In this document: piece by piece, positions 24,039-58,400 of the stretch
How the letters are laid out: every line of letters starts with the position of its first letter
Numbering within the stretch: the first letter of the stretch is position 1
The notes under the pieces: generated by a model
Told to the model about the DNA's origin: nothing
The model's database searches: none
The model's input: only the letters and a program-made list of their open reading frames with translations
Source of the DNA: Eledone cirrhosa
Lineage: Eukaryota
Length of the DNA: 64,000 bases
Assembly: GCA_964016885.1 (NCBI GenBank)
Contig: OZ024745.1
Location: forward strand, 29,450,001-29,514,000
Direction of reading: 5' to 3'
Made by a program: the position numbers and the translations under genes

Positions 24039-24281
24039 ATGATATATATGTATGTATGTATATATATATATATATGTATATGTATATGTATATATACATA
24101 TATATATATGTATATATATATATATATGTATATGTATATATGTATATATATGTATATGTATATATTTATATATATATATTTATATATATGTATATATACA
24201 TATATATATATATTTATAAAATATATATATATAAATGGCTTCTACAGAACTAGAACTGTTTCATTCAAAGGAAATCATTTG

Positions 24282-24333
24282 GGCTTTCCTGATGATTTCC
24301 TTTGAATGAAACAGTTCTCGTGCTGTAGAAGCC
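24282..24333 (+). ncRNA. Type I hammerhead inside a 105-bp inverted repeat (24233-24337)
   Basis: ggctttc-CTGATGA(24289-24295)-t-ttc-cttt-gaa-t-GAAA-cag-ttctcgtg-ctg-TA-gaagcc. Confidence 0.75.
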
Positions 24334-24407
24334 ATTTCTACTCTACTACGTATTGAGTACCTTACTTACTGTGGTTACTCCAGATTGAGCCCAGGAAACA
24401 CACACAC

Positions 24408-24714: not shown

Positions 24715-25111
24715 GGCAGGAGAGAGAGAGAGGGAGTGAGAGAGAGGTGGGAGAGAGAGGCAGGAGAGAGGGGGGGGAGAGATTGGGAAAGAGATAGAAT
24801 TTTTAAGGAACACAAATATTTGTGTTGCTTCAAAGACTTGGAAGCTAGAAGAAGAAATGGAAGGATATTTAATCATGTCACATGAGCAATAACTATATAG
24901 CAGACATGATGTTGCCTTTGAAGTGGCAGAAAAGAGCAAATAGGGGGAAATATGGTGGAACTGGGGGAAGCGAGGCGGGGAGGCATGGTAGAATGGTGAT
25001 TAGGATGAGGGAGGGGGGTATTGAGGAGTAAAGAGACATCCTTACTTTTGAACCTCCATCTTGATTAACTACTTTGTTTTTTTTTGTGACCATATTTCTA
25101 ATGAAATGTAT

Positions 25112-25580
25112 TCATTGCCATCATCATCATTGTCATCATCATCATTGTCATCATCATCATTGTCATCATCATCATTGTCATCATCATCATTGTCATCATC
25201 ATCATTGTCATCATCATCATTGTCATCATCATCATTGTCATCATCATCATTGCCATCATCATCATTGTCATCATCATCATTGTCATCATCATCATTGCCA
25301 TCATCATCATTGTCATCATCATCATTGTCATCATCATCATTGTCATCATCATCATTGTCATCATCATCATTGTCATCATCATCATTGCCATCATCATCAT
25401 TGTCATCATCATCATTGTCATCATCATCATTGCCATCATCATCATTGTCATCATCATCATTGTCATCATCATCATTGTCATCATCATCATTGCCATCATC
25501 ATCATTGTCATCATCATCATTGCCATCATCATCATTGTCATCATCATCATTGTCATCATCATCATTGTTGTCATCATCAT
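25112..25580. repeat. 15-bp tandem array (TGTCATCATCATCAT)n, about 30 units
   Basis: Read directly; followed by degenerate CAT/CAC repeats to about 25930. Confidence 0.95.
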
Positions 25581-25891
25581 CAACATCAACATCAACAGCC
25601 ACATTATAATCATCACCATCACCATCATTATCATTATCATCCTCACTATCACCATCACCATCGCCATTGCTATCTCATCATCATCATCATCATCATCACC
25701 ACCACAATTTCCACCATCACCATCATCATCACAATCACCATCATCATCACCACCACAATTTCCACCATCACCATCACCACCACAATTTCCACCATCACCA
25801 TCATCATCACAATCACCATCATTATCATCATTATCATCATCACCATCACTATCATCATTATCATCATCACTACCATCACCACCATCTCTGC

Positions 25892-29000: not shown

Positions 29001-29251
29001 GAGATCGAAAATGCAACTGGAGTCTTATTTAAAAAAAAATATATATATTTATTTGGTTCCTTTACTGGTTTCGCAGTTCTTCTGCTTTTCAAAAGTAGAG
29101 TTGAGATGGAGGGTCACCAGATGTGAGAAAAACCACAGACCCTCCATCTCAACTCTACTTTTGAAAAGCAGAAGACCTGCGAAACTGGTAAAGGAACCAA
29201 ATAAATATATATATATTTTAAAAAATAAGACTCCAGTTGCATTTTCGATCT
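29001..29251. repeat. Inverted repeat with about 115-bp arms and 22-bp spacer; each arm carries a U3/A8 hammerhead variant
   Basis: Arms 29001-29115 and 29138-29251. Plus arm reads ctt-TTGAAAA-gcag-aagac-ctgc-GAAA-ctgg-TA-aag (29158-29193). Confidence 0.8.
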
Positions 29252-30049: not shown

Positions 30050-30130
<81 letters not shown>

Positions 30131-30135
<5 letters not shown>

Positions 30136-30722
30136 AACATGGGGAGAAGAATACTGCATGGTTGCACATGGATTACATATTATAAAATTAGTTCCTCATC
30201 AGTGATTTGCCAACCATCATTGGTATTTCATCGCATTAAAAATCAGATACCTCAGGTTGGTGCGAGCAATAACTAAAATAAGCTATTGGGACAAGTGAAA
30301 CGCGTAAAGCGAGTGAGACAAGTAAACAACAGAAGGAAAAGCAAACCGAAGGTTGGGAAAACAGCAAGCAACATGATAGTTATCCGATCAGCATAAGCTG
30401 GGTGAATTTCATGAGCGGTCAGAGAAGCAGACCGTACGCCGTGAATGCGGTGTGAGAAAGAAGGAACCCCACTACTAGCGAACGGGAGGAAGTGAGAAGG
30501 GGAGAAACAGAGAGTGAGTGAGTGGAAGTGCGAGGAAGAGGTCAGTCGAGAGAAAGTGTTAACTGACAGAGGGGGCGAAAGAGGGTAAGAGAAACAGAGA
30601 GAACGGGGGAGCAGTAAGAGAGAAAGAGAGAAACAGATAATCGCAGTTTAGGTAAATATATATGAAAAACAAGGGGAGAAGAATACTGCATGGTTGCACA
30701 TGGATTACATATTATAAAATTA
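30131..30722 (-). mobile_element. Retrozyme-like non-coding element, 532-bp period with 60-bp terminal direct repeats
   Basis: Repeats at 30131-30190 and 30663-30722 (1 mismatch), (TA)n on both sides, no credible ORF, contains the permuted HHR motif. Confidence 0.65.
30191..30292 (-). ncRNA. Candidate non-circularly permuted hammerhead ribozyme, copy 1
   Basis: Minus strand: gtcc-caatagct-tatttt-agttattg-c-tcgc-a-ccaacc-tga-ggtaTC-tgatttt-taat-gcga-t-GAAA-tacc-aat-gat-ggttgg-caaatca-CTGATGA-g-gaac. Confidence 0.7.
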
Positions 30723-31926
30723 TATATATATATATATATATATACCAAGAAAAAGCAGGGCAGAGGTGGTGAGAATTGATCTCAAGTCTCTGAGGCTCAA
30801 AGAAGAGATGACGAAGGAACACGATGAGTAGAGAGATTTAATGATGATGATATGACTGTGTGAGTATGTTGTCTATTGACCATAGTTATATCTATCATAT
30901 TGTGTGTGATATCATGTTACATACACACTGGACTGTAAAATATCATATTGGATATCCTTCTACTGGATACTGGTTATGAGAATAACATTTGATCTGATTG
31001 GCTGTTTATGTATATGATGTAATTAGAGCAGCATCGACAACAACAATAGCCACATCATTGGCAACAATACTAGCAGTAGCAGCAACAACAACAACAACAG
31101 CAGCAATAGCAACAACAACAACTACAGCTACAGCAACAACAATGACAGCAATACCAACAACATCACCACGACTAACAACACCAACTACAACATTAGTGGT
31201 GATGGCATTACTGGTGATAGGGTGTGTGGTGGCAGTATGGTGGGGTTGTTAATGGTTTTAAACCAGTGTAATATGTATACTGTTAATATATATGTATAAC
31301 TGTTATATATATATAACCCATGCTAGCGTGGAAAGAGGACGTTAAACGATGATGATGATAATGATGATATATTTGTGTGTGAGCATGTATGAATTTCGGC
31401 TCATTTAAACAAAAATCTACTGAAGATATTTACCAAAGAAATTGATGTCCAGTGCGTAGAAGTGAAGCAAATTATGTGTACACGTGTCTTTGAAATGCTC
31501 AGCTACTTGCATGTTAATATCATGAGTAAGTTGTTTTGTTCACCACATAACTGGAACACTTGCAGAAACCAACAAAACTCCATTCTATGCTCCAAACCAT
31601 AACTTCCTGACAGAAGTAATTTCATCATCATCTTCAACTTTTTCTCTGCTGGTATGAGTTGGATGGATTGTGATAATTAGAGCAACTTCATCTTATAATA
31701 ATAAGAATGAAATTATTGTGTTGTTCCTACATTCCATATTTGGTATGCTTTCTGTGGTTGAATGCCTTTTCCAATGCCAACAACCTTATAAAGTGTGTTT
31801 TTTCCATGGCATCAGCACTACCACCTTACATAGTGGACTAGGTGTCTTTTTGAAATGGCATCAGCACTACCACTTTACTGCATGGGCTGGGTATCTTTTT
31901 GTCATGGTATCAACACTACCACTTAT

Positions 31927-33755
31927 CTAGGTGGACTGGGTGTCTTTTTGTCATGACATCAGCACTACCACTTAACTAGGTAGACTGGGTGTCTTTTTGT
32001 CATGACATCAACACTACCACTTAACTAGGTGGACTGGGTGTCTTTTTGTCATGACATCAGCACTACCACTTAACTAGGTGGACTGGGTGTCTTTTTGTCA
32101 TAACATCAGCACTACCACTTTACTAGGTGGACTGGGTGTCTTTTTGTCATGACATCAGCACTACCACTTAACTAGGTGGACTGGGTGTCTTTTTGTCATG
32201 GCATCAGCACTACCACTTAACTAGGTGGACTGGGTGTCTTTTTGTCATGACATCAGCACTACCACTTAACTAGGTGGACTGGGTGTCTTTTTGACATGGC
32301 ATCAGCACTACCACTTAACTAGGTGGACTGGGTGTCTTTTTGTCATGACATCAGCACTACCACTTAACTAGGTGGACTGGGTGTCTTTTTGTCATGACAT
32401 CAGCACTACCACTTAACTAGGTGGACTGGGTGTCTTTTTGTCATGGCATCAGCACTACCACTTAACTAGGTGGACTGGGTGTCTTTTTGTCATGGCATCA
32501 GCACTACCACTTAACTAGGTGGACTGGGTGTCTTTTTGTCATGGCATCAGCACTACCACTTAACTAGGTGGACTGGGTGTCTTTTTGTCATGGCATCAGC
32601 ACTACCACTTTACTAGGTGGACTGGGTGTCTTTTTGTCATGGCATCAGCACTACCACTTTACTAGGTGGACTGGGTATCTTTTTGTCATGACATCAGCAC
32701 TACCACTTAACTAGGTGGACTGGGTGTCTTTTTGTCATGGCATCAGCACTACCACTTAACTAGGTGGACTGGGTGTCTTTTTGTCATGGCATCAGCACTA
32801 CCACTTAACTAGGTGGACTGGGTGTCTTTTTGTCATGGCATCAGCACTACCACTTTACTAGGTGGACTGGGTGTCTTTTTGTCATGACATCAGCACTACC
32901 ACTTAACTAGGTGGACTGGGTGTCTTTTTGTCATGACATCAGCACTACCACTTTACTAGGTGGACTGGGTGTCTTTTTGTCATGGCATCAGCACTACCAC
33001 TTAATTAGGTGGACTGGGTGTCTTTTTGTCATGACATCAGCACTACCACTTAACTAGGTGGACTGGGTGTCTTTTTGTCATGACATCAGCACTACCACTT
33101 AACTAGGTGGACTGGGTGTCTTTTTGTCATGGCATCAGCACTACCACTTTACTAGGTGGACTGGGTGTCTTTTTGTCATGACATCAGCACTACCACTTAA
33201 CTAGGTGGACTGGGTGTCTTTTTGTCATGACATCAGCACTACCACTTAACTAGGTGGACTGGGTGTCTTTTTGTCATGGCATCAGCACTACCACTTAACT
33301 AGGTGGACTGGGTGTCTTTTTGTCATGACATCAGCACTACCACTTTACTAGGTGGACTGGGTGTCTTTTTGTCATGACATCAGCACTACCACTTAACTAG
33401 GTGGACTGGGTGTCTTTTTGTCATGGCATCAGCACTACCACTTAACTAGGTGGACTGGGTGTCTTTTTGTCATGACATCAGCACTACCACTTAACTAGGT
33501 GGACTGGGTGTCTTTTTGTCATGACATCAGCACTACCACTTAACTAGGTGGACTGGGTGTCTTTTTGTCATGACATCAGCACTACCACTTAACTAGGTGG
33601 ACTGGGTGTCTTTTTGTCATGACATCAGCACTACCACTTAACTAGGTGGACTGGGTGTCTTTTTGTCATAACATCAGCACTACCACTTAACTAGGTGGAC
33701 TGGGTGTCTTTTTGTCATGACATCAGCACTACCACTTAACTAGGTGGACTGGGTG
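31927..33755. repeat. 49-bp minisatellite, about 37 copies
   Basis: Unit ctaggtggactgggtgtctttttgtcatgRcatcagcactaccacttWa. Degenerate units lie upstream from about 31790. Confidence 0.97.
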
Positions 33756-34435
33756 CTGTTTATCATAGCGCCAGTTCTACCATCTCACAGAGTGGGCTGA
33801 TATATTTTATCATGTCACCAGTACTCATTACAACATTTTGGTGCTTGTTCTGTTCTTGCACTGGCTGGAGAGGCAGTGATGAAAATGGGGGTGTAAGAAA
33901 AGAGGGAGCTATATGTTGCTTGCTAAGAGAGGCGATCACCCCACAGTTGGGGAGCAAGTCTCATGTCATGGGAATAGCCTTGATGAGAATGAGATGCTGT
34001 GTACTGTGGGGTGTGTCTGGCTTTCCAGGCAGGTATGGATTGGACAAGAAAGGGGAATTGGGGATGTGGCAGGGGTTGAGGGAGCACATTGTCATGATCA
34101 TCATCATAACCATCATCATAATCAACATCATGATTATCATCATCATCACCACCAACCCACCTCCATGTGCATCCTGCTTTGTATGCTGGTATGGGTTGGG
34201 GTAGGAGGGAGATCAATGATGTGGATGGGGAAGGATGAAGGTTGGGGACTTAGATAGTGAGCAAGGTATGACGGAGTGGGGTGAGAGAAAGAGAGGGGAG
34301 GTTAATGGTATGGAGTTACAAAGCTGCTCATGATTTGGCTGCACATCAGTAAATATGTTTTGCTCTCTGAAACAATCATGAAACAATGGATTAATTAACT
34401 ACTGCACCTTAACTTTGCCATTGTTCAGCATTATA

Positions 34436-43275: not shown

Positions 43276-43355
43276 ATGAAGGAAATGTGGTAAGGAACCA
43301 GGTGGACCATAACGCACCAAAGTACTCAATACTTAGGGTAGTAGAGTGGGTAATA

Positions 43356-43424
43356 GGAATGAGTAGGACCCCGACGGCTGAGCTCAAGCCGTTTCGACGG
43401 CTAATTCTGGACTCAATTAGCCGT
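43356..43424 (-). ncRNA. 5'-truncated canonical hammerhead (lacks CUGANGA)
   Basis: Minus strand: acggctaatt-gagtccag-aattagccgt-c-GAAA-cggct-tgagctc-agccg-TC-gggg. Confidence 0.6.
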
Positions 43425-43426
43425 TG

Positions 43427-44120
43427 AGGACTCCCCCCTTTTTTATATGTAACCCATTTGCAACGCCGCAGCTCCATTATTATCATATTTACACATATTT
43501 TTTCCTCTGCTGCCACCCGTCTGTTTCTCTCTTTGTATCTTTACCCTTTCTAGCAGTCTCTCTCTCTGTTAGCCTCTTCCTCAACTTTCACTCACTCATA
43601 CCCTGTCACTACCTCTCCTCCACTCCTCTTTCTTCCCGCTTGACCTGTCCGATTTCTTTTCTCGCGCACTCTTGGCCAAGCCGGTATGAATTTTTTTCTC
43701 TCTCTCTCTCGTCTGCGTCTTCACAGAACTTATGTTTACCGAATTCGCAGACCAGACCCCTTCTTCTTCTTCTTCTCGTTAGACCTGTGCGAAATTCCTT
43801 CCTTGCTCACATTTCAACCAGGTCTGATGGTCTTTATTCTCTAGTAGTTCACGATTTTATCGAGTTTATATTCATAGAAATCTGGGACTTGTCTCTTTCC
43901 TCTCACTTTCTGTTGCTTAAACCATTTTGTTTGTTCACCCTAACGTTCTCTTTATTTATGTGTCCCAACGACTTTTTTTAGCCGTTGTTCGCACCAACCT
44001 GAGGTATATGGCCCTTAAAGCGATGAAATGCCTGGGACGGTTGGAGGGTCACTGATGAAGGACTCCCCCCTTTTTTATATGTAACCCATTTGCAACGCCG
44101 CAGCTCCATTATTATCATAT
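43427..44120 (+). mobile_element. Retrozyme-like non-coding element, 632-bp period with 62-bp terminal direct repeats
   Basis: Matching repeats at 43427-43488 and 44059-44120, CT-rich body, ends in (TA)n, contains the permuted HHR motif. Confidence 0.65.
43962..44063 (+). ncRNA. Candidate non-circularly permuted hammerhead ribozyme, copy 2
   Basis: gtcc-caacgact-tttttt-agccgttg-t-tcgc-a-ccaacc-tga-ggtaTA-tggccct-taaa-gcga-t-GAAA-tgcc-tgg-gac-ggttgg-agggtca-CTGATGA-a-ggac. Predicted cleavage after 44008. Confidence 0.75.
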
Positions 44121-44121
44121 A

Positions 44122-44215
<94 letters not shown>

Positions 44216-55989: not shown

Positions 55990-58400
55990 TATTGTTATAT
56001 AATTCCACAAATAACTCCTGATGAAATCGTCTTGCATCATGATCAGATGATAGGGTTGGGCCATCAAAAATTCTAATCCAAATTTTCCAGTTCGCTATAT
56101 ATATATTTCGTTTCCGAATTTGTTTAGCAAGATTCTTTATCTGAAAACGTGTGTTGAAACCGATATTGTTATACTTTGTAGTTACTAGCAATGACCATAA
56201 GACGAGCAGTGACTCTGTCACAGGACCACCAACACGGCCAGTCTGTGGAGCTAACATTGCTAGTAACTACAGACTTTCCTACTTTCTCTCTCTGATCATA
56301 CGCCCCATCATTGAAATGTCCCCAGATATATGTGACATCACGGAGGACCTCCTCAGCAGAATCGGTGAAAATAACCGATCTTGGGACCTAACAGACTGTA
56401 TAATAGGTAGTATGGATGTTGTGTTCCTATATCCATCTATTGACGTGGATTTTGCTGTGGAGAAATGCGTAGAAATGATCAGTGAGAGCAATGTTGAATT
56501 CCGTGGGATTGATACCAGTGAGCTGGGACTCCTACTTAAACTTACCTATAGTAATGATTATCTAGATACGTATGACCTTAGCAACCTGTGCTCTACAAGA
56601 CCAGCAAGAGGCAGACCACCTACCATTACCTCAATGGCCAAGAAAACCCATGCAGAAAGATGGAACGGGTGGACCAGAGCCATACGGACCCCTGAAAACC
56701 GCGATGAACTAAAGAAAATGATTGCACATGCAGTGGGGGCCAGTATAAAACTAACCCTTAAGGAATATATGTTCAAAGTTAATGGAAAAACATATGCCCA
56801 AGAGGAGGGAGCAGCCATTGGTGTTAGCATTGCAGGTGACATAGCTAACCTATTCATGGTATGGTGGGACAATAAACTTAAATTTAAACTTAAAGAACAA
56901 TTAGAAGACAGCAACCTCTTAACCCTGATAATGTACTCCCGCTACGTTGATGATATAAACATCGTAGTAAAAACACCCCCACTAGAGAACAGTCAGGAAT
57001 TAGAGAAAAACACCATGGAAAGCATCCAGTAAATCAGAGTATTAGAGTTACTATAGACTACCCAAGCAAACACCCCAACCATCGATTACCTGTACTAGAC
57101 ACAGAGCTCTGGTTAGAAACCATTAATAACAAAAAACAAATCCTCCATTCCCATTATGCCAAACCCATGCCTTCCAAATCCACCGAAACTCAGCTGTCTC
57201 GGATCACACCAAAATCAACATACTGATTGCGGATTTGATACGGGTGATGAGAAACGTGTCCCGCATGTGAAACTCCAATGAACTAGAGAGACACATACAA
57301 CACTTCATCCACCGTATGCAGTTCTCTGGTTACAATCAGAGAGATAAGATCAGAGTATATAGAGGAGCCAGAATCAAATGGGAAAAAATGGTAAATAATG
57401 ATACAAATGGGACCTGCCCCTTGTATAGGAGCAAATTTTGGAATAGAATAGAAAGAACTAGGAATAAGGTTAATAGAATAAACTCATGGTATGATAGCAA
57501 TAAATACCAGAGTGTAATGTTCATCAATACAACCCCTAGAGGTGAATTAGCTTACAAATTTAGAAGGGCCCTAGATAAACTTAAACTTAATATTAAGATA
57601 GTAGAAAGACCAGGTACCTCCATAAAAACACTTATTAGCAATACATACCCTTTTCAAATACTTCCCTGTATAGATAAGAAATGCATAATCTGTAAACTAA
57701 GCCCCCATATTAACTGTAAAACTAGAAATGTAGTATGTAGCATAAGATGTACTGAAGGACAATGTAAAGATAAGAATATAGTGTACATAGGTAAGACAAC
57801 TCGTAGTATAGGAGAACGGTTAAATAAACACTGGCAAGAACTTCAAGATAAAAAAGAATCATCAATACTCCACCAACATGCTAAAATAGAACATAAGGGC
57901 AAATTAGAGAACATAGAAATAAAAATAGAATCTACGCACAGAAAAGATGCAATGTTTAGACAAATCATAGAGGCAATAAACATAAATGAACTCCAACCAA
58001 ATTAAATAGAAAACATGAATGGAATAGCAACATCACAACTTACAATTAAGGACAAAATGAAAACACACACACACATAGAACAAACAACCAACCAGTAACA
58101 TGTAAATAAACAAATAAATAAACAAATAAAAACACACACAGACACCCGGATGTAACACATGCGCAAACTAAGCACACAACACACACAAAAACAAGATGGC
58201 GTAGGACAGAACAAAGGAGAGGCACAAAACAAAGAAAAGAATCCCCAGTCACTGAAGAGGTAACAGAATATGTGACGAAAGAACTTTGACAATATATGAA
58301 CAACCGTCCAGTTATGGAACCAACCAACCAACCAACCGGAAATTTATAAATTCTTAAATTTATAAATTTAATTTATAATAAATTGGAGTGAAAGCAACTG
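55990..58400 (+). mobile_element. Penelope-like retroelement (RT + GIY-YIG), disrupted, with probable 5' inversion
   Basis: GSMDVVFLYPSI, QEEGAAIG..IAGDIANLFM, RYVDDI, LPVLDTEL, VVCSIRC...VYIGKTTRSIGERL..H, RQIIEAINI. Confidence 0.9.
58248..58290 (+). ncRNA. Minimal type I hammerhead in the Penelope 3' region
   Basis: gtca-CTGAAGA(58252-58258)-g-gtaaca-gaata-tgtgac-GAAA-gaac-TT-tgac. This is the expected location for a PLE HHR. Confidence 0.7.

Follow-up and report, generated by a model that had tools for sequence, protein, structure and literature searches.

A likely self-cleaving type-SGC hammerhead with a split stem II on a high-copy non-coding retroelement

A 102-nt motif on the minus strand of the window (the whole stretch of 64,000 nucleotides that was analysed, from Eledone cirrhosa contig OZ024745.1) is best explained as a decayed, likely self-cleaving hammerhead of type SGC in which stem II is split. 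It is carried by a high-copy non-coding retroelement that was probably copied from circular RNA. We hold this reading as a whole to be the probable one. The minus-strand copy is an ordinary, slightly decayed member of a family of about 7,000 genomic copies, which fall into subfamilies with compensatory changes.

The motif in the window and its fold

Two copies of the motif, one on each strand, are present in the window (Table 1). As an earlier note on this DNA had claimed, they are equal in length and spacing: both are 102 nt long and align without gaps (30292-30191 on the minus strand against 43962-44063), with 77/102 positions identical. The catalytic residues which it listed (CUGAUGA, GAAA and U16.1), the tcgc/gcga and ccaacc/ggttgg helices and the tandem GA were all found in the sequence, and the cleavage triplet differs as described, being AUC in the minus-strand copy and AUA at 44006-44008. 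The core comprises CUGAnGA, GAAA and an NUH triplet, and stems I and III flank it. In both copies the core residues occur in the order cleavage site, GAAA, CUGAUGA. Along the RNA, Block S is followed by a five-base linker, Block G (four bases, U, GAAA and the 3′ strand of stem III), thirteen bases and Block C. The permutation seen by the earlier note is real; it is the published type-SGC block order, hence the order itself is not new. By analogy with hammerheads, cleavage is predicted after C17, between 30246 and 30245. A full structural descriptor, written from these sequences, matched the window at exactly the two motif sites, and matched nothing in 30 shuffled windows or in 1.07 Mb of reversed loci.

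Table 1. Positions of the motif, its parts and the host repeats in the window.
Feature	Position	Strand	Basis or detail
Type-SGC split-core hammerhead motif, 102 nt, subfamily A	30191..30292	minus	Alignment, covariation, structural descriptor
Block S	30240..30251	minus	Stem III 5′ strand 30251-30247 with U16.1 (30247); C17 30246; stem I 5′ strand 30245-30240
Block G	30222..30234	minus	Pb 3′ strand 30234-30231; U11.1 30230; GAAA 30229-30226; stem III 3′ strand to 30222
Block C	30191..30208	minus	Stem I 3′ strand 30208-30203; CUGAUGA 30202-30196; G10.1 30195; P0 3′ strand 30194-30191
5′ domain of the predicted four-way junction replacing stem II	30262..30292	minus	P0 5′ strand 30292-30289; hairpin Pa 30288-30267; Pb 5′ strand 30265-30262
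Stem III extension	30210..30260	minus	CCAACC 30260-30255 with GGUUGG 30215-30210, via the kink-turn-like motif
Kink-turn-like motif, two strands	30252..30254; 30216..30221	minus	UGA 30254-30252; 3-nt bulge, GA and U 30221-30216
Non-coding repeat, subfamily A	30121..30722	minus	One 532-nt unit plus terminal direct repeat; (TA)n on both sides; one ribozyme
5′ copy of terminal direct repeat	30653..30722	minus	70 nt including TA letters; 97% identical to 30190-30121
3′ tail	30121..30190	minus	Ends at internal CATATAT tract merging with the (TA)n target
Second motif copy, subfamily B	43962..44063	plus	Predicted cut after 44008; alignment and descriptor
Subfamily B element	43427..44130	plus	633-nt unit plus 72-nt terminal repeat

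The fold derived from genomic copies consists of six helices and one lone pair. In columns of the 102-mer these are P0 (1-4/99-102), hairpin Pa (5-11/20-26), Pb (28-31/59-62), an outer helix (33-38/78-83), stem III (42-46/67-71) and stem I (48-53/85-90), with the lone pair at 63-98. Covariation was assessed in 19 real copies picked to span the subfamilies. In this set 93.1% of the cells are paired and 15/33 pairs show two-sided changes; none of 500 shuffles reached the real values of pairing or two-sided change, and slid structures were at most 48% paired. Further pair types number 24, below the shuffled mean of 27.7, in copies which are related by descent. Stem I is 92% paired with 5/6 pairs covarying, stem III is 99% paired with one two-sided change, and Pb of the small elements shows no two-sided change in these copies. 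The outer helix CCAACC/GGUUGG covaries in five of its six pairs. The core-flanking pair 63-98 occurs as four pair types and is paired in 40 of 41 distinct copies, a set from which 15/56 motifs had been dropped as non-colinear. In a mutual-information analysis of 14 medoids, the three highest-ranking places went to proposed pairs, although many others were tied with them through shared descent.

At the position of stem II, the sequences indicate one variable, covarying pair, beyond which P0, Pa and Pb would meet in a four-way junction. A continuous stem II closing A9 and G12 was not found; there is one pair only, and none in the metagenome element L346 or in the RT/REL element described below. 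The following counts refer to 78 distinct colinear copies (24/102 dropped). Tandem GA/GA lies between stem III and the outer helix in 75/78, with a three-base bulge beside it, and the 3b-3n position is U-U in 57, U-C in 14, G-U in 4 and another combination in 3. With its 3-nt bulge and tandem GA, presumably sheared, between two helices, the motif in stem III fits the kink-turn consensus and is a putative kink-turn. The cleavage triplet in the same copies is AUA in 43, AUC in 34 and AUU in 1.

Nested folding finds hairpin Pa together with the outer helix and stem III, and in the intact copy also P0. The nested energies are unremarkable (z of -1.06 for the minus-strand copy and 0.11 for copy B), as expected where stem I and Pb are pseudoknots. 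Among 140 Rfam matches in the window at E up to 1 there was no hammerhead family, and Rfam gave no hammerhead match for L346, L354 and L373.

The mismatch in the closing helix of the minus-strand copy (gaac/gtcc) is real. Its attribution in the earlier note to post-insertion decay has been borne out: the A in the 3′ strand of P0, at column 100 (window 30193), is a G-to-A change private to this copy against the 78 copies, among which the closing helix reads GGGAC in 42 and GGAAC in 2, one of the latter being the minus-strand window copy. At 30193, nearly all the depth of three public DNA runs, which may come from the window's own sample, is G (X1: 175,437/175,521). A shifted three-pair P0 is possible, so this copy may still fold. 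With one ribozyme and a weakened P0, it is probably a dead-end insertion.

The host repeat, its copies and their ends

The motif sits near the 3′ end of the 532-nt unit. In the subfamily A element the longest ATG frame is 49 aa, and the nearest copies are 98.7% identical. Arrays with periods of 532 nt and 633 nt are present, the 633-nt unit occurring also in long arrays and inverted pairs. The units are pyrimidine-rich and 41-45% paired as circles. The repeats are non-coding and tandem, and each unit has a single hammerhead, as in a non-LTR retrozyme; the type I order was not found.

Pattern searches of the genome gave 1,752 matches to the strict core and 6,825 to the relaxed core, and the reversed-pattern controls gave 0 in both; a pattern of Blocks S plus G, used as denominator only, matched 7,068 times. 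The high-copy family that had been proposed on the strength of two divergent members is thereby confirmed. The proposal that selection acts on RNA structure holds as well, in that comparison of the two window elements gives 75% identity for the motif and 51% for the body of the unit (mean of shuffles 47%, maximum 50%), and the helices covary. Neither half of what the earlier note had said would speak against it, a motif rare genome-wide and no better conserved than its flanks, was observed. Selection acts on source elements rather than on each inserted copy. Viral contigs gave 0 pattern matches and metagenome contigs 18, of which 17 arose by chance, the exception being L346.

Among the first 100 listed family-A copies of contig C1, 23 run into the next unit and 70 of the 77 others stop at the AU tract of the unit. 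The 3′ end is fixed and the 5′ ends are scattered, with 82/100 copies of an unbiased sample reading through the predicted cut. Tandem and 5′-truncated copies lie in (TA)n, and partial tandems, inverted 5′ copies and a microsatellite target occur together, a layout which is that of Penelope-like elements and non-LTR retrozymes. The CATATAT tract at the 3′ tail is the likely priming site.

Copies that begin at the predicted cut are in excess. Genome-wide, 83 copies start at 0 or -1 of the cut under a three-letter mismatch filter, against about 19 expected when the rate sampled in family A is applied to all subfamilies. Small internal deletions or duplications account for 6 of 30 inspected cut-end loci, which leaves about 66 of the 83, and cut-start copies are roughly three to four times commoner than expected. 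Under the same filter an upstream control position gave 2 starts (family A only), near the rough estimate for that pool; 18 of the 83 cut-start copies are of the family-A type, drawn from a larger pool than that control. In the unbiased sample of 100 copies, 2 start exactly at the cut and 8 at most 10 nt after it against 3.1 expected (P 0.015-0.04), a weak excess in which two of the 8 are one duplicated locus. TA microhomology makes other hotspots, for example at +39 (5 copies). The location of 21/23 TA-flanked junctions at or just after the cut was considered as strong proof of cleavage, a reading which was softened since TA microhomology shapes junctions. At L304 a fold-back is centred on the cut, and at L314 both arms end at it. 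The end excess supports cutting in vivo at the predicted bond, without proving it.

Several other repeats were noted alongside the family. A fold-back repeat in (TA)n at 43285-43430 of the window, with 2,253 candidates, is fused head-to-head with the subfamily B element; it was tried as a partial type I hammerhead (GAAA, hairpin, UC) and rejected as such, the copies listed containing no CUGAnGA. A long fold-back in a TA tract at 24233-24341 carries CUGAUGA followed, after a short spacer, by GAAA, which is the classical order, and is possibly derived from a Penelope-like type I hammerhead; similar fold-backs occur in L095 and L153. A near-perfect inverted repeat with arms of about 65 bp adjoins (TA)n at 29052-29200, tandem arrays of 49-nt and 15-nt period lie at 31695-33900 and 24990-25700 respectively, and 56145-58000 holds open frames of 295 and 244 residues, seemingly pieces of a further reverse-transcriptase element. 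A group of older SGC-like repeats (L152-L162), decayed and with a stem III similar to that of Naiad, includes some members that seem to have no hairpin Pa; 1/11 passed the full descriptor. In run X4 (organism B), one 220-nt contig of low depth is nearly identical to the element.

Related elements and competing explanations

L346 has a complete split-core SGC cage at 558-661, which overlaps the stop codon of an upstream frame. This frame is the end of a decayed RT/zf-RVT protein with named relatives from fish. The window's genome (G000) yielded 55 matches to the L346 protein, and 10 of 30 fetched 3′ ends passed the full descriptor. In the RT/zf-RVT elements of this genome (L351-L368) the cage directly follows the stop codon, and several more ends carry it in a visibly decayed form. 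The order P0-Pa-Pb-III-I of the small repeats recurs in L346 and the RT/REL element with unrelated helix sequences; the triplet in the RT/REL element is GUA. Loci L351-L380 represent two RT/REL-type families in G000, the first of which ends in the cage, and L381 is a 3.6-kb head-to-tail partial tandem of the RT/REL element. By eye, the second family (L369, L372, L373, L376-L380) appears to have a decayed cage with other helices. The RT/zf-RVT element with the cage is, we presume, a member of the Hero clade of R2-group non-LTR retrotransposons.

The same helix order was seen by eye in five of the nine Naiad 3′ ends visible in the available portion of the PMC8557442 supplement, namely Naiad_Obim, Naiad_Ovul, Naiad_Plae, Naiad_EuTe and the record before Naiad_Plae; in that portion the motif was not seen by eye at the 3′ ends of Naiad_Dcar, Naiad_Ppla and Naiad_Omin, and the ninth end was ambiguous. 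In Naiad_Plae and Naiad_EuTe, P0 follows CUGAUGA and Pb precedes GAAA, both directly, so that the core is fully split. Among the published sequences compared from this portion, the closest relatives of the motif by eye are the Octopus Naiad consensus sequences, which share the Pa loop with subfamily A and the kink-turn-like motif. Naiad-like remnants in G000 (78 matches) are decayed, with a longest open frame of 223 aa; no autonomous partner was found among them, and the motif lies downstream in 0/22. At another locus (L131, G000:C4:246577000-246586900), a Penelope-like sequence broken into two frames, with RT and C-terminal GIY-YIG-like motifs recognised by eye, has inserted into a TA tract that also contains an SGC copy and is a candidate for the type of mobiliser. 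The Penelope-like ORF of L131 beside L009 was considered as the repeat's own and rejected as a separate insertion; no Pfam family named this ORF.

What was observed is the full core in its block order, helices that covary, the number and layout of the copies, and the excess of ends at the cut; cutting, ligation and the enzyme involved are inferred. Transcripts of tandem units would fold into the cage, in which P0, Pa and Pb meet at a four-way junction where stem II would normally lie and the kink-turn folds stem III back toward stem I. The RNA would then cut after C17 to give unit-length monomers, which a host ligase (RtcB, by analogy with retrozymes) could circularise. An autonomous element that targets (TA)n, most likely a Penelope-like one, would supply the reverse transcriptase and endonuclease. 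These would nick the microsatellite, prime at the AU tract inside the unit, which lies some 115 nt downstream of the cut, and copy through the junction. The expected products are truncated copies, 1.1-mers like the minus-strand window copy, or arrays.

The template might instead have been a linear tandem transcript, uncut or partly cut, the ribozyme cutting only to trim or limit transcripts and no circle being formed. Linear multimers would yield the same genomic picture of tandem copies and terminal repeats, and cut-start copies show that linear cut RNA sometimes serves as template. On the other hand, the 82/100 copies which read through the cut require that cutting be slow or that the ends be re-ligated, small deletions with an end at the cut, seen in 5/30 inspected loci, fit imprecise re-joining, and type I retrozymes form circles according to the available text of PMC7229834; we regard a linear template as unlikely. 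Slightly less probable again is a hammerhead-derived element that is non-catalytic or protein-dependent and acts as a 3′ recognition element for the reverse transcriptase, its core being kept for structure or binding. In each of the three element types the fold sits close to the 3′ end, which, like the split stem II, would agree with such a role; so would the kink-turn-like motif, since motifs of this kind could be bound by an L7Ae-type protein. However, all catalytic residues and the NUH triplet are kept across unrelated sequences, and the genomic end excess falls at the scissile bond itself.

The weak nested-fold z-scores, the lack of an Rfam match and the chance origin of 17/18 metagenome matches could also be taken to mean that the motif is a chance collection of short words in a repeat, amplified by copying. 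Compensatory changes between subfamilies, conservation of the motif against a diverged body and the same six-helix order in unrelated elements argue the opposite, and this explanation, which we hold to be highly improbable, is largely refuted by covariation and L346.

A self-cleaving split-core hammerhead on a circular template remains the preferred reading. A wider proposal, to which we give an even chance, is that an undescribed, non-circularly permuted hammerhead, with a four-way junction for stem II and a kinked stem III, is active and widespread in Naiads, Hero-like LINEs and non-coding parasites, that it is the ribozyme which Naiads reportedly lack, and that it enables retrotransposition from circular RNA primed inside the circle. 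A hammerhead in which CUGAnGA is parted from stem II, present in an animal genome in thousands of copies and shared by two unrelated classes of retrotransposon, would extend the range of the hammerhead fold. It would explain the stray core motifs noted in Naiads and point to many ribozymes missed by present descriptors, and retrotransposition from a circular template would become testable with a 100-nt RNA.

Comparison with known systems

In the available text of Eckert et al. 2023 (PMC10085705), S-G-C is one of three non-circular block orders, and metatranscriptomic SGC RNAs cleave in vitro at 0.007-0.19 per min. The same text reports no SGC in genomes of known organisms, non-circular permutations having been known previously from environmental RNAs and DNA and from one doubtful bacterial case. 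The openly accessible papers searched contain no description of the present fold in animals. Like the type-SGC HRIMA-1 and its variants, as far as their available descriptions go, the motif has the S-G-C order, a full core, a short linker from stem I to the strand preceding GAAA and an extra helix that ties the far ends together. Published SGC RNAs, which come from metatranscriptomes, have a normal stem II in the available text (descriptor CGAAA, CUGAUGAG and 2-6 more pairs; PMC10085705), whereas the present motif has a one-pair or absent stem II, a kink-turn-like stem III extension and an animal retroelement host. By eye, the published descriptor (G10.1-C11.1 with at least 2 further stem II pairs) does not fit it, the motif having UGAAA and one pair only; this is due to the reduction of stem II to one pair and the kink-turn-like continuation of stem III. 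The demand for CGAAA and a longer stem II would explain why the RefSeq search missed such motifs. Eckert et al. assume, in the available text (PMC10085705), an uninterrupted block C in which CUGAnGA is inseparable from stem II. A one-pair or absent stem II breaks this assumption, so the activity of published SGC RNAs is not automatically transferable.

Animal non-LTR retrozymes, in the available texts of PMC7229834 and bioRxiv 10.64898/2026.07.22.740005, are likewise non-coding and tandem, with one hammerhead per unit and thousands of copies, and dependence on Penelope-like elements is proposed there too. Those described have type I hammerheads, units of about 150-450 bp and highly self-paired circles, whereas the present units are 532-633 nt long, pyrimidine-rich and (TA)n-targeted, with an SGC core missed by type I descriptors. 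The (TA)n bias, partial tandems and inverted 5′ copies are shared with Naiad, from which the window element differs in having no ORF; according to the available text of Craig et al. 2021 (PMC8557442), Naiads have no canonical hammerhead but contain core or half-core motifs that the paper leaves unexplained. The RT/zf-RVT element, with its C-terminal endonuclease-like region, differs in being protein-coding, in belonging to another retroelement class and in its helix sequences and tail; its P0, of up to 12 pairs, comes directly after CUGAAGA. By analogy, the family would work like a type-SGC hammerhead in a non-LTR retrozyme, departing from these models in the lack of a continuous stem II and of the type I order. 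What is new here is that stem II is split, with a predicted four-way junction, that the scaffold is kink-turn-like and that the hosts are animal retroelements.
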